The position numbers were made by a program, and so were the translations under genes. This document shows, one piece after another, positions 3,017 through 21,226 of a stretch of DNA of 64,000 bases (its first letter is position 1; every line of letters starts with the position of its first letter). This DNA is from Nitrososphaerota archaeon (GTDB lineage Archaea > Thermoproteota > Nitrososphaeria_A > Caldarchaeales > Calditenuaceae), in NCBI GenBank assembly GCA_033581555.1, contig JAVQSZ010000004.1, forward strand, positions 64,001-128,000. The letters are read 5' to 3'. Below the pieces are notes generated by a model. It saw only the letters and a program-made list of their open reading frames with translations. It was not told the origin of the DNA and searched no databases.

Positions 3017-4654
3017 ATGGCGGTCACGATCGAGGAGGTCAGGCAAGAGCTGAAGCGGAAGGTCGTGACGACGACCAGGAGCGTCTGCCCGGAGTGCAAC
3101 AGGATCCTGCCGGCCGAGGTCTTCGAGGAGGACAACAGGATCTACATCCGGAAGGTCTGCCCGGTCCACGGCGAGTTCGACGAGCTCTACTTCGGGGACG
3201 CCAAGATGTACTACAAGTTCGCGAAGTGGCTGAAGGACGGCAAGGGGACGGGGAACCCCGACGTCGAGATGCCGAGGTGCGCCTGTCCCGCGAACTGCGG
3301 CCTCTGCAGCAGCCACCTGAGCCACACCGGCCTCGCGAACCTCGTGATCACGAACCGCTGTGATCTCCACTGCTGGTACTGCTTCTTCTACGCCGAGAAG
3401 GCCGGCTACATCTACGAGCCGACCCTCGAGCAGATCAGGGAGATGGCCCTGAACTTGAGGGCCGAGAGGCCCGTCCCGGGCAACTCGATCCAGATCACGG
3501 GTGGCGAGCCTACCCTCAGGGACGACCTCCCAGAGATCGTGAGGATACTGAAGCAGGTCGGCGTGGACCACATCCAGCTCAACACCAACGGCATAAGGCT
3601 CAGCAAGGACTTCGAGTACTTCAAGAGGCTGAAGGAGGCCGGGATCAGCAACCTCTACCTCAGCTTCGACGGCGTCACGCCAAGGACTAACCCGAAGAAC
3701 CACTGGGAGGTGCCAGGCGTCCTCGAGAACGCGAGGAAGCTCGGGATCGGAGTCGTACTGGTGCCCACGGTGATCAAGAGCGTCAACGACCAGGAGCTAG
3801 GCGACATCGTGCGATTCGGGTTCGCGAACATCGACGTCGTCAGGGCGGTCAACTTCCAACCCGTCAGCCTCACGGGCAGGATGCCGAAGAAGGAGCGTGA
3901 GAAGTACAGGATCACGATCCCCGACTGCATCGCGAGGATCGAGGATCAGACAAACGGCGAGATCCCGAGGGATGCATGGTTCCCCGTTCCAGCCTGCACA
4001 CCTCTCACAGGCTTCTTGGAGGCCCTGACGAGAAGGGCCCACTACGAGCTGAGCATTCACTTCGTCTGTGGCGCCGGCACCTACGTCTTCAAGGACGGCG
4101 ACCGGATGGTCCCGCTGACCGCCTTCGTCGACGTCGAGGGCCTGATCAAGTACCTCCAGGACAAGGCGGAGGAGATCGAGGCCGGCCGTAACAGGGCCTG
4201 GGTCGGGCTGAAGGTCCTCTGGAACATCGGGAAGTTCATCAACGAGAGGAGGCAGCCGGCGGGCATGAACCTCAAGAGGATGCTCTTCGACATCTTGGTC
4301 AAGCACGACTACAAGAGCGTCGGCGACTGGCACAGGAGGTCTCTCTTCCTAGGGATGATGCACTTCCAGGACAAGTACAATCACGACGAGGAGCGGCTCA
4401 GGCGGTGCGACATTCACTACCTCACTCCCGACAACAGGATCATCCCGTTCTGCGCCTTCAACGTCATCCCGGAGTGGTACAGGGACAGGATCCAGTCGGT
4501 CTATGGCGTCTCGATCGAGGAGTGGGAGAGGAGGACGGGAAGGAAGCTCTCGGACGACTTCTACAAGAGGAAGCTCCCGGTGAAGCAGGCCGCGGTGCCA
4601 ATGGCCTCGACGAAGACCGCCGGCTTCGGCGGACTGGTCCAGGAGACTGCCTGA
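3017..4654 (+). CDS. tes: Tetraether lipid synthase (radical SAM, Tes/GDGT-MAS)
   Basis: N-terminal CPEC...CPVHG rubredoxin-like site, CPANCGLCSSH cluster, CDLHCWYC radical SAM motif, C-terminal FVCG...RCDIHY...IPFCAFN. Confidence 0.9.
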   Translation: MAVTIEEVRQELKRKVVTTTRSVCPECNRILPAEVFEEDNRIYIRKVCPVHGEFDELYFGDAKMYYKFAKWLKDGKGTGNPDVEMPRCACPANCGLCSSHLSHTGLANLVITNRCDLHCWYCFFYAEKAGYIYEPTLEQIREMALNLRAERPVPGNSIQITGGEPTLRDDLPEIVRILKQVGVDHIQLNTNGIRLSKDFEYFKRLKEAGISNLYLSFDGVTPRTNPKNHWEVPGVLENARKLGIGVVLVPTVIKSVNDQELGDIVRFGFANIDVVRAVNFQPVSLTGRMPKKEREKYRITIPDCIARIEDQTNGEIPRDAWFPVPACTPLTGFLEALTRRAHYELSIHFVCGAGTYVFKDGDRMVPLTAFVDVEGLIKYLQDKAEEIEAGRNRAWVGLKVLWNIGKFINERRQPAGMNLKRMLFDILVKHDYKSVGDWHRRSLFLGMMHFQDKYNHDEERLRRCDIHYLTPDNRIIPFCAFNVIPEWYRDRIQSVYGVSIEEWERRTGRKLSDDFYKRKLPVKQAAVPMASTKTAGFGGLVQETA

Positions 4655-4839: not shown

Positions 4840-6216
4840 TCAGCGTACGCTGGAGTATAGAACATGACCCGGGTCGAGAGCGTCCTTTATCTTAGAGAGG
4901 ATGGTCAGCGCCGGTCCCGGATCACTTTCAAGCCATCTCCTCCTCAACTGTCCGACGCCGTGGTGATGGCTTATCGTCGCACCGACCTCCAGCGCCGTTT
5001 CGAAAGCCGTCTCCACAATCTTCCAGTATAAGTCTGGATCCTTCTCGTACACGACGGTGAAGTATAGTGCGCCTCCGTTCGCGTAAAAGTGCGAGGCGTG
5101 AGCCAGGACTCCAGCGACTCCGGGAAGCTTACTGATCCTGCTCCGAATCGCCTCGTGGAGACCCGGGAGCTTGGACCACGTAGACGCGACGTCTATGGTC
5201 TCGAACCACAAGCCCATAGAGTCCAGGAGCTTAATTTCATTCAGGTAGTCGAACCTAGACTTGAGCCATGAGTCGTAGGGCCCGTCGCCCACGAAGTAGC
5301 CGCCCAGTTCCTCGACCCTCTTTCTGACCTTCTCCCACGTGGCCGTCACGAGCTCATGTTCGTAACCCTCGTAACCCAAAAGCAGCACCGATTTACTCGA
5401 ACCGAACCTCATTGCCGATTCGGCCTCGTCGGACAACCGGGCCAACGATGGCTTCATCCCCCTGATCATCAGCTCCTTCACGATCTTCAGGCCTCCGCTG
5501 AAGCTCGGCGTCTCAAAGGCTGCCTTGACCGAGTGCTTGGGCACCGGGAGCACCCTCAGCGTTGCCTTGGTGATCACGCCGAAGGCACCCTCGGATCCGA
5601 CGAAGAGGTGAACGAGGTTAGGGCCCATGGACGACCGAGGAGTTAGCACGTTCCTGGTCCACAGGATGTCCCCAGTGGGCGTCACGACCTCGAGGTTCAG
5701 GACCAGGTCCTCGACGTTGCCGTAACCCGTGCTGTACTGGCCTGAGCTCATCGACGCTATGCAACCGCCCACGGAAGCCAGGTGGAAAGACTGGGGCACG
5801 TGCCTCAGGGTGTACCCCCGTCCCATGAGCCAGTCTTCGAGGTCGCAGAGCAGGACGCCCGCCTCGGCCGTGACCGTTAGGTCCTCCTCGCTGAAGTCGA
5901 TCACCCTGTTCATCCTGCTCAAGCTCAGCACCACGCAGTCGTCCGAAGGGGCGGAGGCCCCCGTGACGCTCGAGCCGCCTCCGTGCACGACGACGCGGAC
6001 TCGGTGCTCGTTGGCCTTCCTGAGCACGTAAGAGACCTCCTCGGCGCTCTCGACGAATATCACGGCCCTAGGTTTGAACTTCCACGAGCCCAGCTTCTCC
6101 AGCAGCATCGCCAGAGGCCACCAGTCCCTCGAGTACTTGCTGGTCACCTCCGCGTCAGTTCTGACGTCGTCGCCCAAGGACCAGCTCACGTCCCTGATGA
6201 ACTCCTCTAGGCCCAT
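4840..6216 (-). CDS. Alkyl-dihydroxyacetonephosphate synthase-like FAD-linked oxidase (VAO/PCMH family)
   Basis: GGGSSVTG, HVPQSF..ASVGG, SGQYSTGYGNVED, GSEGAFGVIT, and ADPS-type ISHHHGVG. Start reassigned to MGLEEF. Confidence 0.8.
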   Translation of the reverse strand: MGLEEFIRDVSWSLGDDVRTDAEVTSKYSRDWWPLAMLLEKLGSWKFKPRAVIFVESAEEVSYVLRKANEHRVRVVVHGGGSSVTGASAPSDDCVVLSLSRMNRVIDFSEEDLTVTAEAGVLLCDLEDWLMGRGYTLRHVPQSFHLASVGGCIASMSSGQYSTGYGNVEDLVLNLEVVTPTGDILWTRNVLTPRSSMGPNLVHLFVGSEGAFGVITKATLRVLPVPKHSVKAAFETPSFSGGLKIVKELMIRGMKPSLARLSDEAESAMRFGSSKSVLLLGYEGYEHELVTATWEKVRKRVEELGGYFVGDGPYDSWLKSRFDYLNEIKLLDSMGLWFETIDVASTWSKLPGLHEAIRSRISKLPGVAGVLAHASHFYANGGALYFTVVYEKDPDLYWKIVETAFETALEVGATISHHHGVGQLRRRWLESDPGPALTILSKIKDALDPGHVLYSSVR

Positions 6217-7598
6217 CTCAATGCCCTCCTCCAGGCGTCCACGTCGACTACGACCTCCAGTTCGCCGGGCTCGACGACCAGGTCGACGTCGACCCTCTCC
6301 TCCAGGTCCCGCATGGATATCCTGCCGTCGTACAGCGCCAGCAGCATGGCCACGCCTCTGCTCGAGGCGTCCGCTCCCCTCACCCTCTCGATCCTGCGGC
6401 CGCACGCCGTCGAGAGCAGCTTGAGGTAGCAGGTGCTGTTGCTGAGGCCACCGTCGACCCGTATCACGCTTCGTCTCCCAGCAACCTCCTCGACGGCTTC
6501 TACGATACTGTGAGCAGCCAGTACGAGGCCCTCCAAAACCCCTCTGACCAAGTCGCTCCTAGTGTGTGCCAGCGATAGTCCGTAGAGCAGTCCCGTGCAT
6601 CCCCTCCTCCTGGGGAACCTGGTCTCGGTAAGCGATGGCACGAAAACCGCCGAGTGCTTAGCCTCCGTGACAGCCTTGTCGAGAGCCTCCACTTCGTCGA
6701 GAAGACCGATCCTGCAGAGCCACTCCACCGTCGATCCACCTGCAGAAGTGTATCCCTCGATGGCGTAGGCCCTGCGACCGCCGATGTTGTAGACCACCAG
6801 CGGTATGAGCTCGCCACGCGGAATCGTGAAGTCGGATACCGACGCATCCACGAACGTCCCGGTGCCGCAGGTGATCTTCAGGCAGTCTCTCCCAAGACAC
6901 GAAGAGCCTATGATCGCGGACTGCTGGTCGGCTATCAGGGCAGCGAAGTCGACTCCGTCCATCGACCCGATGTGGCTGCAGTTGTCCACGATTTCGGGGC
7001 TCACCGACTCAGGTATGCCCAGCAGGTTGTAGACGATCTCGAGCCTCTTCGCCGTCTTGGGGTGAATGAGGCCTGTAAGGGCCTCGTTGGAGAGATCGTT
7101 GACGTACCTGTTCGAGGCGACGTAGGCGACGTAAGAGCTCAGCGTTCCGACGAACGCCTCCCCCTTCGAGACCATCTCCCTGAGCGCGGAGTCGTTCTCA
7201 AGGAGCCACTTGATCCTGACCGCGGGGCTGTCCGGCCGTATCACCTTTCCCAGCACGGGGACGAGCCTGAGCGCCCTGTATACCGGCCGTGAGGTTATCG
7301 CCCTGCCTCTGGCGTCGAGCCACGTGATCACGTCGGTCAGGGGCCGTCCGCCCTTGTCCCACGCCAGCACCGAGCCTCTGTAGGTGGTTATGCCGGCCAG
7401 CCTGACGCCGAGTTCCTTAAGCCTCCTCGCGAACCCCAGGAACGTCTCCCTTATCGCGGTCGCGCTCTGCTCGACGTGACCCTCAGCGGTCCTCCGGAGG
7501 GGCACGCTAACCCCCTCCTTGAGGACGCAGTTCAGCTCATCGTCGTAGACGCTCAGCTTGATGCTGCTGCTCCCTACGTCGACGACGCCGTACTTCAT
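6207..7598 (-). CDS. FGGY-family kinase (glycerol kinase-like)
   Basis: VDVGSSSIK, ITWLDAR, ADQQSA, KITCGTGTF, VDGGLS. Start reassigned to MKYG. Confidence 0.85.
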   Translation of the reverse strand: MKYGVVDVGSSSIKLSVYDDELNCVLKEGVSVPLRRTAEGHVEQSATAIRETFLGFARRLKELGVRLAGITTYRGSVLAWDKGGRPLTDVITWLDARGRAITSRPVYRALRLVPVLGKVIRPDSPAVRIKWLLENDSALREMVSKGEAFVGTLSSYVAYVASNRYVNDLSNEALTGLIHPKTAKRLEIVYNLLGIPESVSPEIVDNCSHIGSMDGVDFAALIADQQSAIIGSSCLGRDCLKITCGTGTFVDASVSDFTIPRGELIPLVVYNIGGRRAYAIEGYTSAGGSTVEWLCRIGLLDEVEALDKAVTEAKHSAVFVPSLTETRFPRRRGCTGLLYGLSLAHTRSDLVRGVLEGLVLAAHSIVEAVEEVAGRRSVIRVDGGLSNSTCYLKLLSTACGRRIERVRGADASSRGVAMLLALYDGRISMRDLEERVDVDLVVEPGELEVVVDVDAWRRALRWA

Positions 7599-8545
7599 CC
7601 CGCGAATACCTCCACGCGCTCGACGTCGCCAGTAACGTCGATCACCGCGTAACCCTCTCTCAGCTCGTACGTCTTTCCCTCGATCAGAGCTCTGGATCCC
7701 CTGTGACCTATCACGAGGAACCTCCTGAGGCATTCGCAGACGGTATGGGGGAAGACTCTCAGGTTCCCCCTCGCGATCACCTTCACGGTCTTCCCGCACT
7801 CGCAGGACATCCTGTCCGCCATCATCTCAGAGGCCTTCACCAGGACCTTCGGGTCGTAGACGTCAATTGCCGCGTGTCCTGCCGCGGGGAACTCCGGGAA
7901 CGGGTTCCAGGGTTCGAACATCGCTATCACGAGCGTGTCGACATCGAGGGCCTCTCCGTTGACGTACACGGACGAAAGTCTGCCGCGCCCCCTGACCCGC
8001 TCGACCCTGCCCCTCAGAACCGAGACGTCGTCGGGGACCATCGACTCGAGGTCGTCTCCTGATGGGCCGGAGGGGTCCACTATGACGACCCTTCTGGTGC
8101 GCTCCAGAAGCTTCACGGCGAGCAGCGCGCTGTACCTGTTTAGGCCGTATAGGACCACGTGTCTGCCCGGCAAGAGCCCCTCCATGAGGAGGTCTAAGAC
8201 CGCGTGGTAGGGGTACACGCCGGAGGGCCTGTCTCCGAGGATTCCTAGCTCGAGGGGCGTAAGGACTCTGAAGCCTGTGGCCACCACGCAGCCCTTCAGG
8301 CCTTCGACCCCGTCGCTCGAGACGGCCACCAGTTCGGATCCGACCCTCACGGCGGTCTTCTCGGTTTCCACCTTGACCTCCCGCGAGAGCTCGTCCACGA
8401 CGCTCATGGCCTCGGGGTCGATCACGGAGATGCCGCCCAGCTGGCGCCTCGTCTCGATGACCCTCGCGTCGATCCCCCTGTCGAGCAGATGTTTGGAGAG
8501 CGAGAGCCCGGCCAGCCCAGCCCCTATGACCGTTCTACCAGCCAT
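7595..8545 (-). CDS. NAD(P)/FAD-dependent oxidoreductase, partner of GlpA-like dehydrogenase
   Basis: GAGLAG Rossmann motif, ATGFR..GDRPSGVY, C-terminal CEC..CEC. Confidence 0.75.
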   Translation of the reverse strand: MAGRTVIGAGLAGLSLSKHLLDRGIDARVIETRRQLGGISVIDPEAMSVVDELSREVKVETEKTAVRVGSELVAVSSDGVEGLKGCVVATGFRVLTPLELGILGDRPSGVYPYHAVLDLLMEGLLPGRHVVLYGLNRYSALLAVKLLERTRRVVIVDPSGPSGDDLESMVPDDVSVLRGRVERVRGRGRLSSVYVNGEALDVDTLVIAMFEPWNPFPEFPAAGHAAIDVYDPKVLVKASEMMADRMSCECGKTVKVIARGNLRVFPHTVCECLRRFLVIGHRGSRALIEGKTYELREGYAVIDVTGDVERVEVFAG

Positions 8546-9936
8546 GAGCCCTCACCCCCCTTGACGAAGACTTCGGGTCTCAGACCAGTAAACCTGAACA
8601 CCTCGACTATCGCCCTGCCCAAGCAGTGCTGACCCTGACAGGACCCCATGCCTAGTCTTGTCCTGAACATGACGCCATCGAGCGTCTTAGAGCCTGCCCT
8701 GATCGCGTCCTCGATGTCAGCCGAGCTGACGGCCATGCAGGGACAGACGACGGTGCCTCTCGGGCCCTTGACCGCGAGCGGGTCGATCTGAAGGAGCTCC
8801 CGGGTCCTATGCGCGAAGTCGGGATTCCTGAGGCCGCTCTTCGGCTTGAGATCCAATCCGGCCCTCTTGAGCATGTCCAGCACTGTCACGGCGATGGCCG
8901 GTGCTGCCGTGAGCCCCGGCGACTCCACGCCCACCAGGTTCACGACCCTGAAGGTCTTCGGGGAATAGGCGATGACGAAGTCGCCGCGGACGTGTGAGGG
9001 CCTCACGCCGGCGTACGCCTTGAGGGGTCTGCCCTTGGTCCTGACGAGCCCGCCGAACCTCGCCACGAGCACCTCGACGTCCTCAGGATAGACTCCCTTG
9101 TCGTCCCTCGAGCCCCCTCTGACCAGGTTAGGGCCCCAGATGGTGTTGCCCCAGACCGTTGGGATTATGCCGCCGCCCTTGGTCTCACCTCCGCGGACCA
9201 GCTGGAGGGGCGCAACGACGCTCCTCACTTGAAGCCCGTCGAAGACCAGCATCGCCCCCCTCTTCGCGACTAGGGACTCCTTCGCTCCGCTGAGGTTCGC
9301 TATCCTGTCGGACTCTAAACCGGCAGCGTTGACGAGGAACTTCGACTTTATTGGACCTCGGTTGGTCCATAAGACAATATAATTCGGCTCGACTTCTATT
9401 CCTTCGACTTTGGTGTTGAAACGGAACTTCACACCACGAAACCTCGAGACGTCGTGCAGCTTGTACACTAGATCGAAGGAATCGATGACGCCGTAGCCAG
9501 CTATCCTGATAGCCGCATAACCAATCACGTTGGGCTCCATGGCCCTCAGCTCCGTACAGTTCACAACCGATACGTCGAAACCCTTGGTTCCGTAGTAGAG
9601 CCTCAGGACCGCGTAGACGAGCGGCAAGAGGAGGAGCTGCCCTAACGAGCGAGCTACCAGAAGCGCCGGAAGGCGCCAGAGTTTCACCTTCAGATCCGCG
9701 GCCACCGCGTCGTACATCCTGTTGCCCCGCAGAGCTAGCGCGCTCTTCACGGACTTAAGGGGTAGCTGGACGACGTGCAAAACGCCCGCGTGTCCCTTTG
9801 AAACACCGAAACCCGGCTCTGCCTCGCTCTCTACCACTACGACATCGACCTCGTATTTCGATAACTCATAAGCAACGAAAAGCCCCACAACGCCGGCGCC
9901 GATTATCGCGACGTCGTGAGCCCTGTTACCCTCCAT
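8524..9936 (-). CDS. FAD-dependent glycerol-3-phosphate dehydrogenase-like protein (GlpA/LhgO family) with BFD [2Fe-2S] domain
   Basis: IIGAGVVG, AGVRP, ESPGLTAAPAIA, VCPC...RTRLGMGSCQGQHC. Confidence 0.8.
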   Translation of the reverse strand: MEGNRAHDVAIIGAGVVGLFVAYELSKYEVDVVVVESEAEPGFGVSKGHAGVLHVVQLPLKSVKSALALRGNRMYDAVAADLKVKLWRLPALLVARSLGQLLLLPLVYAVLRLYYGTKGFDVSVVNCTELRAMEPNVIGYAAIRIAGYGVIDSFDLVYKLHDVSRFRGVKFRFNTKVEGIEVEPNYIVLWTNRGPIKSKFLVNAAGLESDRIANLSGAKESLVAKRGAMLVFDGLQVRSVVAPLQLVRGGETKGGGIIPTVWGNTIWGPNLVRGGSRDDKGVYPEDVEVLVARFGGLVRTKGRPLKAYAGVRPSHVRGDFVIAYSPKTFRVVNLVGVESPGLTAAPAIAVTVLDMLKRAGLDLKPKSGLRNPDFAHRTRELLQIDPLAVKGPRGTVVCPCMAVSSADIEDAIRAGSKTLDGVMFRTRLGMGSCQGQHCLGRAIVEVFRFTGLRPEVFVKGGEGSWLVERS

Positions 9937-11632
9937 GAGACTCCTTCCCCCGACGGAGCCGATAGTTCAACCACCTTGAAGCGAAGAAGGCCACGCTTGC
10001 GACCACCATCAGAGGCGCGCCGAAGAACCCAGTGAAGGCCGATCTCATTAGCGAGTTGAAGAAGAACAGAGCGTCGTTCATGTCAGGGGACGGGAACCTG
10101 AAGCTGGCGCCGTAATCGACGTAGAACGGCAACGCGTAAGCTAAGCTGACCAGTATTGCGGCCAGTGCCGTGAAAACAGAGATCACGAGAGCCCTGAACA
10201 AGTCCCTCCTCGAAGGCACGAACTCTACTACCCCGATGATGGCGCCCGCGACCAGCCCTCCGACGATTGCGCTCGTCTGAATTCTGCTGATCAGCCATCC
10301 GAACGACTCTATGTCTGAGAGGCTGAAGGGGCCATTGTTCAGCGCGTAGGAAGCCCAGAAAGACAGCTCATACGCCAGCAGTCCGATGATCAGCGAAATC
10401 AAGTGCCTCCGCAAGCCTCTGACCACGGTCACTTTGACCGCGAGTCCTGTCACAACGACGGCGAAGGAAGTCGCCGCGGCGGCCAGGGCTAACCTGAGGT
10501 TTCCGCCTCCCTTCCTCAGGTCCTTGGTCATCGAGTCGTAACGGCTTACGGGATCCGTTGTGGGATCCGTCCTGAGTCCGGTCGCCTCGCTTAACGCTCC
10601 GACCACCCTCAGCCCCTGATCGATCGATGCTCTGAGGTAACGCTCAACGGTATCACCCGGAAGTGCAAAGCCTCCACCCAACACGACGCCTATGGAGTTC
10701 GCGGGAATCTTCCATCCCATCACCATCGATACTGTGGGAGCGACGTCGTTGTGCGTGAACGCATCGTCATAGACGCCGGGCTTCACGACGGGTCCTAAGA
10801 ACAACAGGAAGACCCTCCTGACTTCGCGCTCTGGTCCTCCGTGATGTGCTCCTCTCTTGAACCCGTGATCGGTTAAAATGACTATCAATGTGTCATCGCT
10901 TAAGCCGTCCCTTTTCAAAGAATTCAGGAAGTTCATGGTCAATTGGACTATGTTCACTACGGTCGCGTTGTACTCCTCTCCTGGAAACCCAGCTTTGTGT
11001 CCCATAATGTCTACGTCATTTACCCCAACCCACAGGAAGACCTTATGGCCCATGTTTGCGTGCCTCTTGAGGAGCTCGAGGCCTTTGCTCAATGAAAGGG
11101 CGCCGTGCCCTCCACCGTCGCCGACGCTCACGCACTCGTCGATGAGGTGCGAGAACAGGGTTCTGAAGGAGTCGTCGCCGCTGCAGAGTATCCTGTACCC
11201 AGATTCCTTGGCGACTTTGACGAGACTGTCTACCTTGAGGGTCCTCTTGAAGTCATTCGAGGACGCCTCGTTCAGTTCTGGAGGGGTCCCGGTAAGTATG
11301 GATGCCCTGGCGGGCAAGGAGTAGGAGGGCATGTTAGACAGGCCGTTCGGGTAAAACGCGCCGAGTGAAAGGAGCGATGCTATGTGGTCGTGCTTGCGGC
11401 TCAGGTCGGTCAAGACTCTCACGTCTAGGCCGTCGAGCAGAACGAAGACGACGTGCTTCGCTGCGGCCTCTCCCGAGACCTCTACGCGATCGACTTCGGT
11501 CAGCGCGTCCAGGTACGGGTTCCTGTAATCGATCCAGCCGTTGTAGGCGCTAAGGGCCGTGGAGGCCGCAGCATAGGAGAGGGCCGGAACGAGGATGAGG
11601 GCGATCGCGAGGGACGCGTAGAATAGCTTCAC
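9926..11632 (-). CDS. Alkaline-phosphatase-superfamily membrane protein resembling GPI ethanolamine-phosphate transferases
   Basis: N-terminal TM, LLDGL, PSYSLP nucleophile region, DVDIMGH, TDHG..HHGG, HNDVAPT..IPANSIG, about 5 C-terminal TMs. Start is 11632 or 11647. Confidence 0.7.
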   Translation of the reverse strand: MKLFYASLAIALILVPALSYAAASTALSAYNGWIDYRNPYLDALTEVDRVEVSGEAAAKHVVFVLLDGLDVRVLTDLSRKHDHIASLLSLGAFYPNGLSNMPSYSLPARASILTGTPPELNEASSNDFKRTLKVDSLVKVAKESGYRILCSGDDSFRTLFSHLIDECVSVGDGGGHGALSLSKGLELLKRHANMGHKVFLWVGVNDVDIMGHKAGFPGEEYNATVVNIVQLTMNFLNSLKRDGLSDDTLIVILTDHGFKRGAHHGGPEREVRRVFLLFLGPVVKPGVYDDAFTHNDVAPTVSMVMGWKIPANSIGVVLGGGFALPGDTVERYLRASIDQGLRVVGALSEATGLRTDPTTDPVSRYDSMTKDLRKGGGNLRLALAAAATSFAVVVTGLAVKVTVVRGLRRHLISLIIGLLAYELSFWASYALNNGPFSLSDIESFGWLISRIQTSAIVGGLVAGAIIGVVEFVPSRRDLFRALVISVFTALAAILVSLAYALPFYVDYGASFRFPSPDMNDALFFFNSLMRSAFTGFFGAPLMVVASVAFFASRWLNYRLRRGKESHGG

Positions 11633-11668
11633 AACGCACTCACACATGCAATTCGGGCTGAACGCGAT

Positions 11669-13495
11669 TTAAGGGTTGCAGCCATCTTCGTCGTGAATCG
11701 GAACAGACCGACTGGACTTGTTGAGTAGCGCTTCTTGGGCTGCGGTAATTGGTGGGGCGCTCTTCGACGCAGTGAGCTCACGGGTGAACGCACGGGTCAT
11801 TCGCGCGCTCTCGGACCGGTAACGGGTCCCACGTTCACGGTCGAGTCCTAGTACGTAATTTCGCAGCAAGTAAGTCATGACGCCCGCCACCAGCGCGGTG
11901 ATCAGGTTGCCGACCGCATGGAACTGACCATATGCTACTCCCAGGAGCAGGTACCACGCGATCAGGGGCCCGAGGAAGATCCTCTCTCCGAACTCGATCA
12001 GGAGCATCAAGAACGTGGTGAGGCCCGCGACCAGCAGGAGGGCCCTGACAGGCCTCCGCCTCACGAACGGTATCCACGGCCAGAGCGTGAGGATCGGTGC
12101 GAGTAGGACCACTGTCCCGAACCTGTTGTAGAGGAGCGAGGCGACGGCTGCGACCGAGAGTGCGACCATCACGGGGAACGGGTGCGCACGTCCCCTCTGA
12201 CGGAACATGACTGCGGCCGCGACCGGAGGAGCGAGGAAGAGGGCGAAGACCAACGGGTCCGGCGAGTAAAGGTATGGATGCCGCGGCGGAGGAGGGTAGG
12301 TGTCGTACCTCGGTATCAGGCCGAGGGCCGGCGAGACCGATACGAGCGAGAAGGAGACGACGAAGGCGGCCGCGTAGACGCCGAGCTCGAGGAACGCGCC
12401 CTTGACCTCCCTCCTCCTCTCCCAGAGCGATGCCGCGTGGACGATGACCGGTATCGCGAGGACCGAGGGAGCGACGTACGTCACCGGACCAGGCACGTAA
12501 CGGCCGTCCAGCGCGAGGTAATCGTCGTCGTATGGAGGTACGCGGTCGGCCTCGTCGAGGCTCTTGACCAGTGCGTAGACGTAGCGGCCGTAGGCCTCGA
12601 AGGAACTGACCCTCATGTTCTCCATCGTGTCCTTGGGAGTGTGGTAGACCTCCCTCGCGAGCTCGGGAGCGTCGCCCCTGGTCGATACCTCGATCGCGGG
12701 GATTCCCTTAGCGATGATGGGCCCCTGATCCGTGAAGGAGATGTCGACCGCCCTATAGACGTACTCCCACAGGCCGCTCGGGTCCTCGACGCGGACTCCC
12801 AAGCGATCGCCCACGTCCCTGCAGAGCCTCCTGAGCCATAGCGGAGCGTACCCGGAGAATTGGCCCATCGACTCGAGGTAGATCGACGTCAAGTTGCCGA
12901 CCGTGAGGTCCTCGGCGACCACCACAGCTCTGATCGGCGGGCCCTCGTACCGCTCGACGAAGTGCCTCGCTCCCTGCATCCCCCACTCCTCCGAGTCGAC
13001 GAAGGCGAAGACGATCTCGCGCCTGTTGGGGACTTCCCTCAACGACCGCGCCAGCTCGAGAAGGACTCCGACGTGACCGGCCGTGTCGCTCGCTGCCTGG
13101 TAGCTCGTGGGGGCCATGTCGTAGTTGACCAGGACGACGACCGCATCGGGGACGCTTCCTTTGAGCGACGCGTAGACGTTCCTCCCGTTCCTGGGCCGCT
13201 CGAGGACCACCTCGAACTCCTGGACCTTTACCTCGTAGCCCATCTCGCGTAGCCGGTCGCTGATCCAGAGGAACGCCCGGAAGGCGTCCTCGCTCCCTGT
13301 AGTCCTATATGGGAAGCGGGACGCTAGCTCGGCGGCGTACTCGTAGGCTTTGGTCGCGTTGAACCTGATCTCCTGGACGACCGGCTCGATCTCCGGCACG
13401 ACCGGCTCCGAGACGAGGTGGAGCAGCAGGAAGGCAGCGACGCATGACACGTAGACCGCGGCCAGAACCCTATTGTCTCTCAACGTCGACGCCAA
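11669..13495 (-). CDS. Membrane M28-family metallopeptidase-like protein (N-terminal TM, M28 domain, multiple C-terminal TMs)
   Basis: RTTGS, VNYD, ASDTAG, DSEEWGMQGA, TDQGP, YHTPKD. Confidence 0.8.
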   Translation of the reverse strand: MASTLRDNRVLAAVYVSCVAAFLLLHLVSEPVVPEIEPVVQEIRFNATKAYEYAAELASRFPYRTTGSEDAFRAFLWISDRLREMGYEVKVQEFEVVLERPRNGRNVYASLKGSVPDAVVVLVNYDMAPTSYQAASDTAGHVGVLLELARSLREVPNRREIVFAFVDSEEWGMQGARHFVERYEGPPIRAVVVAEDLTVGNLTSIYLESMGQFSGYAPLWLRRLCRDVGDRLGVRVEDPSGLWEYVYRAVDISFTDQGPIIAKGIPAIEVSTRGDAPELAREVYHTPKDTMENMRVSSFEAYGRYVYALVKSLDEADRVPPYDDDYLALDGRYVPGPVTYVAPSVLAIPVIVHAASLWERRREVKGAFLELGVYAAAFVVSFSLVSVSPALGLIPRYDTYPPPPRHPYLYSPDPLVFALFLAPPVAAAVMFRQRGRAHPFPVMVALSVAAVASLLYNRFGTVVLLAPILTLWPWIPFVRRRPVRALLLVAGLTTFLMLLIEFGERIFLGPLIAWYLLLGVAYGQFHAVGNLITALVAGVMTYLLRNYVLGLDRERGTRYRSESARMTRAFTRELTASKSAPPITAAQEALLNKSSRSVPIHDEDGCNP

Positions 13496-14549
13496 GCCCC
13501 TTCAGTCCCTCCAGGAAAGACGCGGGGTCGATGACCGCCTCGGGCGGGAGCACACCCCTCTCCGACACCTCGCCCCTCAGGATCGAGTGAGCGCCGAGGG
13601 CGGCGGGCGCAGCCGTCAGCTTCCTCATCCTGTTCACGGAGCAGTAGCTAACCCGCCTCTCGCCCCTCACGGCCTCGACCCTGACGCCGCTGAGCCCGAC
13701 CCCTCCGACCCTGAAGACGCCCTCGATTCTGTGGATCGCCCTCGAGAGCTGCTCGAGCCTCTCCTCGGTCGAGGTCAGCCGCATTCCGACTAGCGTCCTG
13801 AGCAGACCGTTCTGCCACGCCGGGACTAGGCCCCCTCTCACGGTCACGTTCCTAGAGACCCTGAGGTGACTTGGTATCGTGAGCGGCTCTGGGTGGCCCA
13901 CGTAGTACAGCTTCAGCTTCCCGATGAAGGGGAACTCGAAGACGGCCGGAGACGATCCTGCCCTCACCTTGGTCAGCCTGCCCTCGAGGTACATCGGGAC
14001 CTCGCCCGTGACGGTGTGGAGGAGGTGCATCACGACCGCGAGCCCCTTCGAGTCGGCGGCCGACCCGAACCAACCTATGTTCACCTCGTCGACCTCTCCT
14101 CCTAGCTCCTCGCAGCACCTCTTCGCAATGACATTAGAGAGCCCTGGCGTCCACCCGAGACCGGTTACGAAGGTGACGTCCTTCTCGATGGCTCGCCGGT
14201 GCAGGCCGAGGATCCTCTCGGTGGCGTCGTGGTCGTCGCAGACGTCGACCGCGTCGATCCCCAGCTCGATCAGGGCTGAGGCCACGACGTGCCCGTACTT
14301 GAAGAACGGCCCCACGGCGCTCACGACGACCTCATACCCTCTCGCTGCGGTCATGTCCTCCCTCGAGGTGACGTCGACCTTGACGGCCCCAACGTCGCCC
14401 AAGTCTTTCAGGGACCGTGCGACCTCGAGCGCTCGCTGGACGTTCACGTCGCCTATGTCGACCTCCTCTCCGAGCTTCACCAGCTCCTCGACTATTCCGC
14501 CCCCGATGTCGCCGGCTCCGCCGAGCACCAGGACGCGCCTGGACCTCAT
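13470..14549 (-). CDS. Saccharopine dehydrogenase / lysine 6-dehydrogenase-family oxidoreductase
   Basis: LGGAGDIG, SAVGPF, GLGWTPGLSN, GHPEP, GVLPPE. Confidence 0.8.
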   Translation of the reverse strand: MRSRRVLVLGGAGDIGGGIVEELVKLGEEVDIGDVNVQRALEVARSLKDLGDVGAVKVDVTSREDMTAARGYEVVVSAVGPFFKYGHVVASALIELGIDAVDVCDDHDATERILGLHRRAIEKDVTFVTGLGWTPGLSNVIAKRCCEELGGEVDEVNIGWFGSAADSKGLAVVMHLLHTVTGEVPMYLEGRLTKVRAGSSPAVFEFPFIGKLKLYYVGHPEPLTIPSHLRVSRNVTVRGGLVPAWQNGLLRTLVGMRLTSTEERLEQLSRAIHRIEGVFRVGGVGLSGVRVEAVRGERRVSYCSVNRMRKLTAAPAALGAHSILRGEVSERGVLPPEAVIDPASFLEGLKGLGVDVERQ

Positions 14550-15643
14550 AGCGATGCGCTGCTTAGGGCCTTCGGGAGCTTAGTCGTGTTCTCGTAACCC
14601 GTCGATCCCAGAACCACGTCGTCCTCCAGCCTCACTCCGAATTTCCCGGGCAAGTATATTCCGGGCTCGATCGTAAATATCATTCCAGACACCAGCGGAG
14701 ATTTGTCGCCCTCGACTATGTACGGCGCCTCGTGGACCTCGACCCCGAGCCCGTGGCCGGTGCGGTGTATGAAGAACGAAGCGTAACCCTCATGCGCAAT
14801 GACCGACCTCGCGGCCCTGTCGACCTCCTCAGCAGAAACTCCAACGGCTATCGCGTCCAAGGCCCGCTGCTGCGCCTCCAACACGACGCTGAAGACGCGC
14901 TCCTGCTCCGGGTCTGGTCTATCTAGCACAAAGGTCCTAGTGAAGTCGGCGTAGTAGCCCCTGTAACAGACCGAGGCGTCGAAGACTATCGCGTCGCCCT
15001 CACGGATCCTCCTCGACGTGGGCTCGAGGTGTGGGTTCGCGCCGTTCGGTCCGGACTGGATCAGGCAGTAAACGCTCTCGGCTCCCAAGTCGTAGCAACG
15101 ACGGAGGAACGTGGTCATCGCGTCCCTCTCAGTCATCCCGGGCCTGAACTCCGCCATCGTCTCGAGCATCGCCTCCTCCAAGACGCGGGCGGCCATCACG
15201 TGTCTGACGACCTCATCGGGGTCCTTCGGAAGCCTCATGCTGACGATAACGTGGTCGACTATGTCGAACTTCAGTCCCGGAGCCCTTTGCACGAGGTTCC
15301 TGTAAAGCCACACCGGCGTCCTCGACTCCACGCCGATCACCCCCGAGAGTCCGGAGAGCAGTCTCTCCACGAAGCCCCAGGGTCCCGTCCCGTCGCCGTA
15401 GGGGAGGACCTCACAGTAGCGTCCTATCGCCTCCTCGACCCTGTCCCTGTCGAGCTGTGGGACGACCATAACCGGCTCCCGGTCGAACCCGGCAAGGAGG
15501 AACGCGGGCCTCTCGAAGACCTCCAGCGTGAAGTCGAGGAGGTACCTCATGTTTGGGCCGGGCACGACTATCGCACCATCGAAACCGGACGCCCTGCAGA
15601 GCTCGAGGAACCTCTTCAGCCTCGAATCGACGCGGACCGGCAC
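14546..15643 (-). CDS. pepQ: Xaa-Pro dipeptidase (M24B prolidase)
   Basis: ANPH, YYADFTRT, HRTGHGLGVEVHEAP, TIEPGIY, GVRLEDD. Confidence 0.9.
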   Translation of the reverse strand: MPVRVDSRLKRFLELCRASGFDGAIVVPGPNMRYLLDFTLEVFERPAFLLAGFDREPVMVVPQLDRDRVEEAIGRYCEVLPYGDGTGPWGFVERLLSGLSGVIGVESRTPVWLYRNLVQRAPGLKFDIVDHVIVSMRLPKDPDEVVRHVMAARVLEEAMLETMAEFRPGMTERDAMTTFLRRCYDLGAESVYCLIQSGPNGANPHLEPTSRRIREGDAIVFDASVCYRGYYADFTRTFVLDRPDPEQERVFSVVLEAQQRALDAIAVGVSAEEVDRAARSVIAHEGYASFFIHRTGHGLGVEVHEAPYIVEGDKSPLVSGMIFTIEPGIYLPGKFGVRLEDDVVLGSTGYENTTKLPKALSSASL

Positions 15644-15782
15644 GCTCCGAATATGCGCCGGTGGGACTTAAGGTGAGAGGTCTCGCCGTCGATCAGGGCG
15701 CAACGCGATGCTCCTCTGACCCTCAGCGGATGCTGGGAGGAGCCGGAAAGCCAAAATACTGAACGTCATCGCTCAGCGGAGG

Positions 15783-16751
15783 ATGGGCGCGGATCCGCTC
15801 CTCACGGTGAAGGGCCTAAAGACCTACTTCTACACCTCGATGGGCGTCGTGAAGGCCGTCGACGGCGTCAGCCTGAGGGTGGGGAGGGGGTCCGCTGTCG
15901 GGATAATCGGGGAGTCGGGCTCGGGGAAGACGATGACCGGACTCTCGATCCTCAGGCTCGTGCCATATCCCGGCCGCATAGTCGCGGGTGAGGTCCTCTT
16001 GGACGGGGTAGACTTGCTCAAGCTCAGCGAGGAGGAGATGAGGAGGATAAGGGGGAAGAGGATCTCGATCGTCTTCCAGGACGCGCTCACCAGCCTGAAC
16101 CCCGTGTTGACGGTCGGCGAGCAGCTGGCCGAGCCCCTGATGACCCACCTCGGCCTCAGTAGGAAGGAGGCCTATGAGCGTGCCACGGAGATACTCAAAA
16201 GGGTCGGGATACCGGACGCGAGCAGGAGGCTCACCAACTACCCTCATCAGTTCAGCGGCGGCATGAGGCAGCGCGTCCTGATAGGCATGGCGATCTCTTG
16301 CAACCCGGAGCTCCTGATCGCGGACGAGCCCACGACGGCCCTCGACGTGACCACTCAGAAGCAGATCATGGACCTATTCAGGGAGCTGATGGAGAGGATG
16401 AAGATGACGCTTCTGCTGATCACTCACGACATAGGCGTGGCCGCAGAGGTGTGCGACTACATCTACGTGATGTACGCGGGCCAGATCGTCGAGGGCGGAC
16501 CGACTGAACAGATCATCTCGGACCCTAAGCATCCGTACACGAGAGGGCTGATAGAGTCGATCCCGAGGGGCTTCAAGACGGAGGCGAGGGCCAAGCCGAT
16601 CAGTGGGACGGTGCCCTCGCTCCTCAACCTACCTACCGGGTGCAGGTTCCATCCCCGCTGTCCTCTCGCGATGGAGAAGTGCAGGAGGGAGGAGCCCGAT
16701 CTCATAGAGCTCGGGGACGGAAGGAGCGTGAGGTGTCTGCTGTATGAGTGA
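15783..16751 (+). CDS. dppD: Peptide ABC transporter ATPase (DppD/OppD)
   Basis: GESGSGKT, FSGGMRQR, ADEPTT, GCRFHPRC. Confidence 0.92.
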   Translation: MGADPLLTVKGLKTYFYTSMGVVKAVDGVSLRVGRGSAVGIIGESGSGKTMTGLSILRLVPYPGRIVAGEVLLDGVDLLKLSEEEMRRIRGKRISIVFQDALTSLNPVLTVGEQLAEPLMTHLGLSRKEAYERATEILKRVGIPDASRRLTNYPHQFSGGMRQRVLIGMAISCNPELLIADEPTTALDVTTQKQIMDLFRELMERMKMTLLLITHDIGVAAEVCDYIYVMYAGQIVEGGPTEQIISDPKHPYTRGLIESIPRGFKTEARAKPISGTVPSLLNLPTGCRFHPRCPLAMEKCRREEPDLIELGDGRSVRCLLYE

Positions 16752-17709
16752 CGGCGAGCTCCTGATCCGGCTTGAGGACGTGAGGAAGTACTTCCCTGTC
16801 TACAGGGGGATCCTGAGGAGGAAGGTCGGGGAGGTCAAGGCCGTCGACGGCGTCTCGCTCGGTGTGAGGGCAGGGGAGGTCTTCTCCGTCGTCGGGGAGT
16901 CGGGGAGCGGGAAGACCACCCTCGGGAGGATCGCCTGCGGCCTCATCGAACCGGACAGCGGCTCGGTCTACCTCAGGGACACCCCCCTGAGCGAGCTGAA
17001 CGGCCGGAACGCGGCCCATGTCAGGAGGCGGCTCCAGATAATCTTCCAAGACCCGGACTCATCCCTTAACCCCAGGATGACCGTCGAGGCGACCCTCCGA
17101 GAGGCGCTGAGGGCCGCGGGGAAGGCCGGCACCCGCGCCGAGGCCCTAGAGCTCCTTCACATGGTGGGAATGAGGGCCGAGCACCTAGTCCGGTACCCGC
17201 ACGAGCTGAGCGGCGGCCAGAAGCAGAGGGTCTGCATTGCAAGGGCGCTTGCGGTCGACCCGGTCTTCATCGTCGCCGACGAGCCCGTATCCTCCCTCGA
17301 CGTCTCGATCAGGACGTCCATCCTGAACCTGATGCTGGACCTCCAGAGGAGTCTGAACCTCACTTACCTCTTCATCTCGCACGACATGGCGGTGACGAAG
17401 TACGTGGCCGACAGCGTCGCGGTGATGTACTTGGGGAAGATCTGCGAGATGGCACCGGCAAGCGCGTTCTTCAGCAACCCACTCCACCCCTACTCGAGGG
17501 CGCTGCTCTCATCGGTCCCGCAGTTCTACAACCTATGGTCCGGGGAGCACGTGAAGCTCACGGGAGACCCTCCGTCCGCTATGAGCCCGCCTCAGGGGTG
17601 CAGGTTCCACACGCGTTGCCCCTACGCGTTCGAGAGGTGCAGGGTAGAGGAGCCGAAGCTGATCGAGGCCGCTCCGGGTCACTTCGTCGCGTGTCACCTT
17701 TACGGCTAG
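16744..17709 (+). CDS. dppF: Peptide ABC transporter ATPase (DppF/OppF)
   Basis: GESGSGKTT, LSGGQKQR, DEPVSSLD, GCRFHTRC. Confidence 0.92.
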   Translation: MSDGELLIRLEDVRKYFPVYRGILRRKVGEVKAVDGVSLGVRAGEVFSVVGESGSGKTTLGRIACGLIEPDSGSVYLRDTPLSELNGRNAAHVRRRLQIIFQDPDSSLNPRMTVEATLREALRAAGKAGTRAEALELLHMVGMRAEHLVRYPHELSGGQKQRVCIARALAVDPVFIVADEPVSSLDVSIRTSILNLMLDLQRSLNLTYLFISHDMAVTKYVADSVAVMYLGKICEMAPASAFFSNPLHPYSRALLSSVPQFYNLWSGEHVKLTGDPPSAMSPPQGCRFHTRCPYAFERCRVEEPKLIEAAPGHFVACHLYG

Positions 17710-18605
17710 AGGAGCCTCATCCTAGGGTCGAGGGCGTCTCGGAGTCCGTCACCTATTAGGTTGAAGGAGAGGACGGTCAGGAAGATCGCGAGGCCCGGAG
17801 CCAACACGAGGTGCTGCTGCGAGAAGATGTAGAGGTAGTACTCCCCGAGCATCTGGCCCCACTCCGGCGTCGGCGGCTGTACCCCCACACCTAGGAACCC
17901 GAGTCCCGCAGCAACCAGTATCGCGGTCCCCATGTATAGCGTGGCCTGAACGATCACCGGCGAGAGCGCGTTGGGGAGGACGTGCCTGAACATGATCACG
18001 TAGCTGGGTAGCTGAAGGGCCCTCGCCGCCTCGACGTAGTGCATCTCCCTTATCGTCAGGACCGAGGCCCTCACGAGCCTCGTGAAGACCGGGATCGCTG
18101 TCACGCCGACCGAGATGATCACGTTCTGAAGTCCGACCCCGAGCATCGCGACCAGTGATAAGGCCAAGAGGAAGGTCGGGAAGGAGAGCAGGACGTCGGT
18201 GACCCTCTGGACCACCATGTCAACCCACCTCGAGAAGTACCCGGAGAGTAGTCCGAGGACGACCCCGATCGCCGCCCCGAAGGAGACTGCCGCGAGCCCC
18301 ACTAGAAGGGACATCCTGCTCCCGTAAAGGATCCTTGAGAGGACGTCCCTCCCCAACTGATCCGTCCCAAGCGGGTGCTGCGGGCTCGGAGGCCTCAACG
18401 CGTTAGCGAGGTCCTGCTTGATCGGGTCGTGTGGGTAGTAGTCGGCGAGCAGGGCGCTAGCGACGAACCCCATGAGTATCATCAGTCCCGCGACTGCGGC
18501 CCTGTTCCTCCTATACCTCCTCCAGAACTCCCCGAGGAGAGCGAACCTCGTCCTCTCCTCGACGCCCTCGAGCTCCCTGAGCAGCTCGGCCTCCTGGCTA
18601 GTCAT
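17706..18605 (-). CDS. dppC: Peptide ABC permease (DppC)
   Basis: HPLGTDQLGRD, YVEAARA, PEWG. Confidence 0.92.
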   Translation of the reverse strand: MTSQEAELLRELEGVEERTRFALLGEFWRRYRRNRAAVAGLMILMGFVASALLADYYPHDPIKQDLANALRPPSPQHPLGTDQLGRDVLSRILYGSRMSLLVGLAAVSFGAAIGVVLGLLSGYFSRWVDMVVQRVTDVLLSFPTFLLALSLVAMLGVGLQNVIISVGVTAIPVFTRLVRASVLTIREMHYVEAARALQLPSYVIMFRHVLPNALSPVIVQATLYMGTAILVAAGLGFLGVGVQPPTPEWGQMLGEYYLYIFSQQHLVLAPGLAIFLTVLSFNLIGDGLRDALDPRMRLL

Positions 18606-19527: not shown

Positions 19528-19534
19528 TTTCGGA

Positions 19535-21133: not shown

Positions 21134-21226
21134 TAATCATAAAAGGTTTTTGGTTTTTGGGGGAAACCATTTATGAGTCGCCAAAATTGAAAATGTCGAT
21201 ATTCTGCTTCGGTAGAAGTTTGAGCG

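Follow-up and report, generated by a model that had tools for sequence, protein, structure and literature searches.

Two genes that resemble GPI-pathway genes lie side by side in a Caldarchaeales genome and probably belong to separate gene modules

Introduction

Glycosylphosphatidylinositol (GPI) anchoring of proteins is treated as a eukaryotic invention. Two kinds of proteins from that pathway concern us here. The ethanolamine-phosphate (EtNP) transferases PIG-N, PIG-O and PIG-G (yeast Mcd4, Gpi13 and Gpi7) share an N-terminal transmembrane (TM) helix, a non-cytoplasmic domain of the alkaline phosphatase (AlkP) superfamily and a C-terminal helical bundle, while GPAA1 (Gaa1), a subunit of the GPI transamidase, carries an M28 peptidase-like domain and a TM domain. 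In this study we analyze a 64,000-nucleotide stretch of archaeal DNA, which we refer to as the window (positions 64001-128000 of contig C4 of genome G000), in which two neighboring genes encode proteins of these two architectures. We call them the AlkP-TM gene (protein P0001) and the M28-TM gene (protein P0002). An earlier reading of the DNA letters alone, hereafter the original prediction, proposed that they form a GPI-like lipidation pair coupled to an ether-lipid module in the same operon.

A 2026 report in Nature states, in the part of it drawn on here, that GPI-anchor synthesis and the transamidase complex are of Asgard ancestry (PMC12872458), so prokaryotic relatives of the GPI machinery are already in print at that level. 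Our literature search returned no account of the function of GPAA1 or PIG-N/O/G relatives in prokaryotes. At the level of titles and abstract openings it also returned nothing on the M28+TM family, the Caldarchaeales locus or an AlkP-TM/AGPS-type module; the supplements and Extended Data of PMC12872458, which lay outside its scope, may list homologues.

We find that the resemblance of both proteins to GPI-pathway proteins is real at the level of whole-chain folds, as the original prediction had it, and that the two genes have separate sets of conserved partners. The conserved gene set to which AlkP-TM belongs is not that of M28-TM, which makes it unlikely that the pair serves a GPI-like anchoring of proteins. 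On balance we favor the view that P0001 and P0002 are separate polytopic ecto-enzymes, encoded at the junction of two independently inherited modules and without GPI-like coupling.

Results

The two genes co-occur in a single genus

Genome G000 is a 1.43-Mb assembly of 72 contigs, 90.56% complete. DNA of the window is contained in hot-spring metagenomes, and the closest named relatives of P0001 and P0002 come from metagenome-assembled genomes labelled Candidatus Caldarchaeales. We searched 401 genomes, drawn evenly from the phylum, with an AlkP-TM profile and a profile of the M28-TM membrane domain. AlkP-TM was found in 8 of the 401 genomes and M28-TM in 6, all of the latter from the window's own order. 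The two were found together in G000 and G027 only, which belong to one genus, so the co-occurrence on which the original prediction would lean extends to 2 of 401 genomes. Among 76 genomes of the order, relatives of P0001 are encoded in five (G000, G027 and, at about 29% identity, G047, G050 and G054) and relatives of P0002 in six (G000, G027, G005, G007, G010 and G018). When the window proteins were compared by tblastn with 17 archaeal AlkP-TM loci, M28-TM was found to adjoin AlkP-TM in only one, L001, from a sister species. No AlkP-TM homologue was detected at the M28-TM loci L026-L060, even when distant homologues were used as queries, with flanks longer than 5 kb at only about ten of these loci.

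Other parts of the GPI pathway were sought in the same genome. Peptidase_C13 (PF01650, which includes PIG-K) and PIG-L (PF02585) gave no match in the 90.56%-complete assembly, and as controls the PIG-L and C13 models matched in 7 and 1 of 14 genomes, respectively. Nor did Gaa1 (PF04114) match anywhere in the genome, a model for which the control search found no match either. Of the other transamidase subunits, PIG-U was sought, and it gave a weak match (29.6-29.8 bits, over the cut-off) on another contig, in a membrane protein of at least 737 amino acids (aa) at L032:1321-3531 (contig C2 of G000, about 167005-169215). Because this protein also scores for ALG3 and GT87, which like PIG-U we take to be families of the GT-C type, the match suggests a generic GT-C-type membrane glycosyltransferase that is not linked to the gene pair. 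Exosortase/archaeosortase (PF09721) was not found in the genome; since the control matched in 1 of 14 genomes, this is weak evidence.

These results bear directly on the proposal that P0001 and P0002 form a GPI-like system, in which a phospho-amine headgroup would be placed on a lipid or glycolipid. Outside the cell, the M28 protein would then present the amine or itself make the amide link with the C-terminus of a protein. Such a system would fit the resemblance of both whole-chain folds to the two eukaryotic proteins, the close spacing of the genes, which share one strand of a dense run with 21 nucleotides (nt) between them, their joint presence or absence within the genus, and the inositol-1-phosphate synthase encoded in the genome. 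P0002 is also without metal site 1, as GPAA1 is according to the part of PMC4111754 used here, and the archaeal (Asgard) ancestry stated in the consulted part of PMC12872458 would fit such a system as well. It fits poorly with the restriction of the pair to one genus, with the single shared locus among 17 AlkP-TM loci and none among L026-L060, with the missing C13 and PIG-L matches, and with the lack of any Gaa1, PigN or PIGO_PIGG Pfam match for the pair even at E<=10. The conserved partners of the two genes also differ, as described below. We regard a GPI-like system as very improbable, and the coupled lipidation pair of the original prediction is not supported: the pair is unconserved, its members keep separate partners, and no C13 or PIG-L was found. 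The original prediction had named two observations that would speak against it. One of them, the lack of co-occurrence in other genomes, is what we see; the other, structural matches of a generic kind only, is not, as GPAA1 and clusters of GPI-EtNP transferases are among the matches.

The AlkP-TM gene belongs to a conserved glycerol-phosphate and AGPS-type module

The two genes lie in an unbroken run of eight genes on the minus strand, packed so tightly that neighbors overlap or are at most 21 nt apart:

14546-15643, minus strand: M24 Xaa-Pro dipeptidase-like gene, first in the run, overlapping the start of SacDH by 4 nt
13470-14549, minus strand: SacDH, a saccharopine-dehydrogenase-like NAD(P) oxidoreductase, overlapping the start of M28-TM by 26 nt
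11669-13495, minus strand: M28-TM gene (P0002, 608 aa, TTG start)
9926-11647, minus strand: AlkP-TM gene (P0001, 573 aa; 568 aa from the database start at 11632)
8524-9936, minus strand: G3Pox, a DAO-family flavoprotein that ends in a BFD-like [2Fe-2S] domain and is glycerol-3-phosphate (G3P) dehydrogenase/oxidase-like, overlapping the AlkP-TM stop by 11 nt
7595-8545, minus strand: FAD316, an FAD/NAD(P)-binding protein of 316 aa and the NOX-like partner of G3Pox
6207-7799, minus strand: FGGY kinase, glycerol-kinase-like, far under the GlpK cut-off; real start probably near 7598, because homologues align from residue ~68
4840-6405, minus strand: FADox, an AGPS-type FAD-linked enzyme; real start probably near 6216, because homologues align from residue ~64

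The AlkP-TM gene and the four genes downstream of it, which we designate module A, recur as a set. Five of the 17 archaeal loci (L001, L002, L003, L006 and L007) have AlkP-TM followed by G3Pox, FAD316, FGGY and FADox in that order, and at L017 G3Pox follows AlkP-TM before the locus ends. In G054 and G047, which belong to a different family of the order, the four genes are present at 32-44% identity and adjoin an AlkP-TM homologue of about 30% identity in convergent orientation; by coordinates, this adjacency is also seen in G050. FADox relatives at E<=1e-60 are found in exactly the five genomes of the order that have AlkP-TM. In the phylum sample an AGPS-like gene at this threshold is present in 6 of the 8 AlkP-TM genomes, versus 31 of 401 overall. 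A second M28 gene near the AlkP-TM homologue of G054 (P0140) was considered as a counterpart of M28-TM and set aside as a coincidence, since it encodes a soluble PA-domain M28 protein unrelated to P0002 (BLASTP E 0.096).

The last gene of the run is what connects module A to ether lipids. FADox has the Pfam domains FAD_binding_4 and FAD-oxidase_C, and its best solved relatives are alkyl-dihydroxyacetone-phosphate (alkyl-DHAP) synthases (2uuu, E 2.6e-47; 4bby, 8.4e-46), with LctD at 8.9e-34. In the alignment to 2uuu and 4bby, 'ishhhgvg' of FADox corresponds to 'SHHHGVG', and 'shfYangg' to 'SHTYTNG' and 'TQTYDAG'. We take the SHHHGVG loop and the aligned Tyr, which FADox shares with AGPS, to be the signature and catalytic residues of AGPS. 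Judged by its sequence, FADox is AGPS-type and not a generic GlcD. It differs from eukaryotic AGPS in having no long N-terminal extension, and no DHAP acyltransferase or alkyl-DHAP reductase was identified beside it. The retained AGPS-type loop makes the ether-lipid module of the original prediction a real feature of the run.

The remaining members of module A point to glycerol metabolism, at a distance from the characterized families. The kinase scores 187 bits versus the 590-bit cut-off of the GlpK equivalog, and the DAO+BFD protein 139 versus 460 bits for G3P oxidase. Together, DAO+BFD, the NOX-like protein and the kinase are reminiscent of the 'GlpTk' arrangement of Thermococcales and Desulfurococcales, as it is described in the part of PMC11962113 that we draw on. 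Genes for an SCP2-like protein, a zinc-dependent alcohol dehydrogenase (Zn-ADH) and an acyl-CoA dehydrogenase precede module A in L002, L003, L007 and L014. The SCP2-like gene is a small open reading frame (ORF) just upstream of AlkP-TM (L002:9336-9767, L003:9320-9781, L007:1635-2054, L014:7520-7966), mostly beside the other two, and this flank indicates a lipid-metabolic neighborhood of module A in Thermoproteota. In Archaeoglobaceae (L005 and L012) a hydroxyacyl-CoA dehydrogenase/enoyl-CoA hydratase gene lies ahead of the module.

The M28-TM gene has a SacDH-like partner and, in the window, a probable link to peptide uptake

The M28-TM gene keeps different company. A SacDH-like gene lies directly upstream of it at L026, L027, L028, L029/L031, L033, L034, L037 and L040, the last of which also has an M24 gene, and Opp genes are found within a few kb of M28-TM at L038 and L039. 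Bacterial M28-TM neighborhoods yielded no conserved partner besides SacDH, only scattered peptidase and Opp genes. We designate the SacDH-like gene and the M28-TM gene module B. In the window, module B would form the edge of a peptide-uptake island (M24, Opp and M19), whose remaining genes lie beside the run:

15783-22279: peptide-utilization genes, with OppD and OppF (plus strand), OppC, OppB and OppA (minus strand) and M19 membrane dipeptidase (plus strand)

Together with the M24 prolidase-like gene, OppD/F/C/B/A and the M19 membrane dipeptidase occupy window positions 14546-22279.

P0001 has the whole-chain fold of GPI-EtNP transferases

We next consider the proteins themselves. Both families have many intact homologues (36 matches for P0001 and 101 for P0002), so the two ORFs are genes and not chance reading frames. 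For AlkP-TM the original prediction gave an ORF of 9926-11632. The ORF is real; its proposed upstream end, 11632, is a GTG six codons downstream of an ATG (11647). The GTG start agrees with the 568-aa database entry P0003 and with the start of the nearest homologue. At L014 (10043-11591) the AlkP-TM homologue is split over two frames, possibly by sequencing error or decay.

The order of TM helix, catalytic domain and multiple TM helices that had been predicted for both proteins was borne out by AlphaFold2 models (pLDDT, the predicted local distance difference test score, 89.2 for P0001 and 90.1 for P0002) and by a hydropathy scan. In the P0001 model a single N-terminal TM helix precedes the extracytoplasmic AlkP-superfamily domain (approximately residues 59-330), and residues 382-570 contain five long helices. 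The C-terminal tails of both proteins carry Lys/Arg, with six such residues in the last 40 of P0001. In the Pfam scan P0001 matches Phosphodiest (PF01663) at 54.4 bits and Sulfatase at 45.9 bits, both above the curated cut-offs. The three motifs that had been noted in the sequence were recovered as DVDIMGH (211-217), DHGFKRGAHHGG (260-271) and PTVSMVMGWKIPANSIG (304-320), and the core residues of each are the same in all 20 homologues aligned. The residues invariant in these 20 sequences include D72, S110-x-P112-x-R114, D211, D213, H217, D260, H261 and H269, and the five-helix TM domain has invariant loop residues of its own (Y434, S444, Y512, G513, P519 and P521).

Among the predicted models of the ESM Atlas, P0001 aligns with clusters of GPI-EtNP transferases 1, 2 and 3 over 508-534 of its 573 residues, with TM-scores by query of 0.72-0.79, and is closer to bacterial clusters of 555-585-aa 'alkaline phosphatase family' proteins (0.84). 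PF01663 is common to P0001 and PIG-N/O/G, and so, we assume, are motifs of the D..GH and DHG...HGG types. The differences are considerable. PIG-N/O/G are about 920-1090 aa long, compared with about 570 aa and far fewer TM helices in P0001, which also has no PigN or PIGO_PIGG Pfam match, a putative Ser nucleophile in an S-x-P-x-R context, no C13 or PIG-L found in its genome, and partners that are glycerol/DHAP enzymes and an AGPS-type enzyme. At E<=10 hmmscan returned only Phosphodiest, Sulfatase, PglZ, DUF229 and DUF1240, to the exclusion of PF04987 (PigN) and PF19316 (PIGO_PIGG), and NCBIfam has no equivalog for P0001 or P0002. Longer fused forms of P0001 (1004-2865 aa) were not found, which is weak evidence.

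Against solved structures, P0001 finds partners for its catalytic domain only, with the following match scores:

PafA, 30.7
ENPP7, 29.3
Xac NPP, 29.0
sulfatases (best rows), 26-27
PbgA, 24.3
LtaS/LtaP, 22.9-23.9
MCR-1 / EptC, 20.7

Foldseek gave a similarly generic list. No GPI-EtNP transferase chain is among the PDB matches listed, and the PDB copy searched may hold none. These better-known relatives differ from P0001 in architecture. In EptA/MCR-1, LtaS and PbgA/YejM the TM domain is N-terminal to the catalytic domain, the opposite of the P0001 order of one TM helix, catalytic domain and five TM helices, and NPP and PafA are soluble or single-pass proteins without a polytopic C-terminal domain. 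NPP and PafA use a Thr nucleophile. In P0001 the conserved S110-L-P-A-R114 ..LTG resembles, in its S-x-P-x-R context, the formylglycine motif of sulfatases. We considered a type I sulfatase with a maturase and rejected it: the sole match in the genome to the anaerobic sulfatase-maturing enzyme model (anSME, TIGR03942) scores 19.1 bits versus a cut-off of 349 and lies inside the tetraether lipid synthase gene described below, the formylglycine-generating enzyme being outside the search. Most likely, to go by the sequence, Ser110 acts directly as the nucleophile.

Given the glycerol-related partners, P0001 could be a mere scavenging ecto-phosphodiesterase or phosphatase with the job of GlpQ or PhoA. 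It would then supply an ordinary glycerol-catabolic operon with glycerol, glycerol phosphate or phosphate released from glycerophosphodiesters outside the cell, and the AGPS-like enzyme would be a D-lactate or 2-hydroxyacid dehydrogenase. A hydrolase of soluble substrates would have no need of the conserved five-helix TM domain, its invariant loop residues and the PIG-N/O/G pattern. Moreover, the kinase and dehydrogenase fall far under the equivalog cut-offs, and the flavoenzyme has the AGPS-type HHH loop, not the usual dehydrogenase motif, a distinction that presumably separates the two enzyme types. The lipid-metabolic genes that flank the module at L002, L003, L007 and L014 likewise fit poorly with scavenging. 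We consider this explanation unlikely, and prefer to place P0001 in the turnover of (ether-)lipids centered on glycerol phosphate and DHAP, in view of its conserved FGGY, G3P-dehydrogenase-like, NOX-like and AGPS-type partners.

P0002 has the fold of GPAA1 and an incomplete M28 metal site

P0002 matches Peptidase_M28 (PF04389) at 80.1 bits, above the curated cut-off. In its model an N-terminal TM helix is followed by an extracytoplasmic M28 domain (about 35-326) and by a multi-TM bundle (about 336-548), in which the motifs YPPPPRHP and AYGQF are conserved. The chain ends in a tail of about 55 residues (window 11669-11840) that is modelled poorly (pLDDT 43-72) and is missing from the 86%-identical P0040 (550 aa).

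The five top solved-structure matches of P0002 are GPAA1 chains, aligned over about 615 columns, so that GPAA1/Gaa1 is the best whole-chain match, TM domain included, with the same topology. The next-best structural and profile matches are glutaminyl cyclases, mono-zinc M28 proteins that have no TM domain of this kind. In ERMP1 and yeast Pff1, too, an M28 domain is joined to many TM helices; no solved ERMP1 structure is in the structure match lists of P0002. At the sequence level the likeness to GPAA1 is lost. A profile search of the PDB with the P0002 family found YwaD (1.1e-29) and glutaminyl cyclases (~7e-19), and GPAA1 was not in the best 60 of its 99 matches. No Pfam Gaa1 (PF04114) match was obtained at E<=10 with hmmscan, and phmmer with the P0002 TM domain against PDB sequences found no GPAA1 chain, only DNMT3B at chance level (E ~0.07). 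P0002 further differs from GPAA1 in having no C13 partner that we could find and a SacDH-like reductase as its conserved partner.

A profile of the TM domain, searched against 1.84 billion representatives (50% identity), yielded 270 proteins with E<=0.001, of which the best 150 were viewed. Full-length matches are about 540-630 aa long with the domain at about 330-570, and the weaker full-length members that were checked carry PF04389 in 16 of 16 cases and Gaa1 in none. Because the profile finds only these 270 proteins, and every member checked pairs the domain with PF04389 and lacks Gaa1, P0002 belongs by sequence to a small, coherent prokaryotic family of M28 plus TM domain. The nearest ESM Atlas clusters are most commonly from Acidobacteriota, Actinomycetota and Chloroflexota. 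The homologue in G005 (C3:29492-31128) is in two pieces with in-frame stops, which sequencing error or decay may explain.

The active site has changed in one position. Aligned to the di-zinc enzyme YwaD, P0002 has N124 in place of the first metal-binding His, and retains D137, E170 (beside E169), D196 and H285 at sites 2-5. The site-1 Asn is common to the closer homologues (NYDM, NHDM or NFDM), and His appears only in some distant members. A co-catalytic di-zinc M28 aminopeptidase with all five ligands (H, D, E, D, H) was therefore rejected for the window's clade. The loss of metal site 1 means that P0002 probably binds one zinc, and the canonical D/E/D/H ligands and Glu-Glu pair make it look catalytically competent. 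In the part of their study used here, Eisenhaber et al. describe five M28 metal positions, of which GPAA1 is alignable at 2-5 and not at 1, and predict a single metal as in glutaminyl cyclase (PMC4111754). GPAA1 and P0002 are thus alike in lacking the site-1 His and having liganding residues at sites 2-5 (PMC4111754, same part). The pattern agrees with a GPAA1-like mono-metal site; being a single substitution, it carries little weight. In the distant actinobacterial members P0117-P0121 the fold and membrane domain persist without the Glu-Glu pair and without the last His; by their residues, these proteins are probably not peptidases.

Could P0002 be something other than a peptidase? It might instead handle lipids or amines at the membrane, as a protein without catalytic activity or as a 'metallo-peptide synthetase', and act together with the SacDH-like reductase on some envelope component that bears an amine. 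This would suit a conserved TM domain found only in fusion with M28 (270 representatives; PF04389 in all 16 of the weaker full-length members), the persistence of the fold and TM domain in P0117-P0121, which have lost the Glu-Glu pair and site-5 His, and the conserved SacDH link; such a role has been proposed for GPAA1 (PMC4111754, as far as the part used here goes). It would not suit the window's clade, where the general-base Glu and the ligands of sites 2-5 are intact, the nearest proteins by sequence, which are active aminopeptidases and glutaminyl cyclases (the YwaD and ~7e-19 matches above), or the peptidase and peptide-transport neighbors at several loci. We think it quite unlikely.

A stronger form of the GPI-like proposal would make the M28-TM family the prokaryotic counterpart of GPAA1: some 270 proteins (representatives at 50% identity) from Caldarchaeales and from several phyla of bacteria, with the GPAA1 whole-chain fold and with site 1 lost. 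In this genus, in an operon with a PIG-N/O/G-type transferase, it would join the phospho-amine headgroup of an archaeal lipid to a surface protein or peptide by an amide, independently of a transamidase. If true, GPI anchoring would have a minimal relative that does without C13; we give this proposal only an outside chance.

Other features of the window

On the other side of the run from the peptide genes lies a further lipid gene:

3017-4654, plus strand: Tes, tetraether lipid synthase, radical SAM (NCBIfam 713.7 bits, cut-off 450)

Tes is divergent from the gene run and is present at 91-94% identity in all five other searched genomes of the genus. It adjoins the run in this genus only, and in G022 its neighbors are not conserved: around Tes in this same-genus genome nothing but Tes matched, so no island boundary could be drawn. 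Farther along, a single ORF of 556 aa (46275-47945, minus strand) fuses a ZnuA-type substrate-binding domain to an ABC-3 permease domain, and an ATPase gene of the ATP-binding cassette (ABC) type adjoins it at 47949-48656.

Discussion

From the folds, conserved residues, synteny and phyletic patterns that we observe, we infer substrates and chemistry for both proteins. P0001 would present an outward-facing Ser110 and a two-metal centre (D72, D260/H261; D213/H217, H269), and its TM bundle may hold a membrane phospholipid. Ser110 would attack the phosphodiester of the lipid headgroup, and the phospho-headgroup would be handed to water or to the hydroxyl of an acceptor by way of a phospho-enzyme intermediate. 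In the cytoplasm, its module A partners would convert glycerol, glycerol phosphate and DHAP into one another and perform ether chemistry of the AGPS type, in a biosynthetic, salvage or catabolic direction. P0002 would act at the membrane surface as a single-metal M28 exopeptidase, or as another amide-bond enzyme, on peptide N-termini; a SacDH-type amine oxidoreductase would be its partner, with peptide uptake as a further connection in this genome.

Several observations weigh against two independently inherited modules. It is a striking coincidence that two whole-chain look-alikes of GPI-pathway proteins lie 21 nt apart on the same strand, when their families are as rare as 8 and 6 of 401 genomes. 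Both modules are found together in G000 and G027, and none of the four genes searched for (AlkP-TM, M28-TM, SacDH-like and AGPS-like) was found in G022-G026, so within the genus both modules may travel as one block. This pattern cannot be used statistically either way, because it represents one evolutionary event. The conservation of module A is also imperfect: AGPS-like genes occur in 25 sampled genomes without AlkP-TM, 2 of the 8 AlkP-TM genomes have no AGPS-like gene at E<=1e-60, and the four module genes are not adjacent in 11 of the 17 archaeal AlkP-TM loci. Similarly, the bacterial contexts of M28-TM are heterogeneous. Taken as a GPI-like anchoring system, the pair is nonetheless most likely two unrelated modules that happen to abut.

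The two proteins are of interest on separate grounds. P0002 is a compact, apparently competent protein of the GPAA1 fold, and could show what the GPAA1 scaffold did before becoming part of a transamidase. P0001 represents a PIG-N-fold enzyme whose gene, across Thermoproteota and Archaeoglobaceae, is tied to those of glycerol/DHAP enzymes and of an AGPS-type flavoenzyme. In organisms that make their own ethers by a different route, AGPS chemistry is unexplained; it could bear on the salvage or degradation of ether lipids under anoxic conditions. The conserved PIG-N-like/AGPS-like lipid module is therefore, to us, a more interesting lead than GPI-like coupling.

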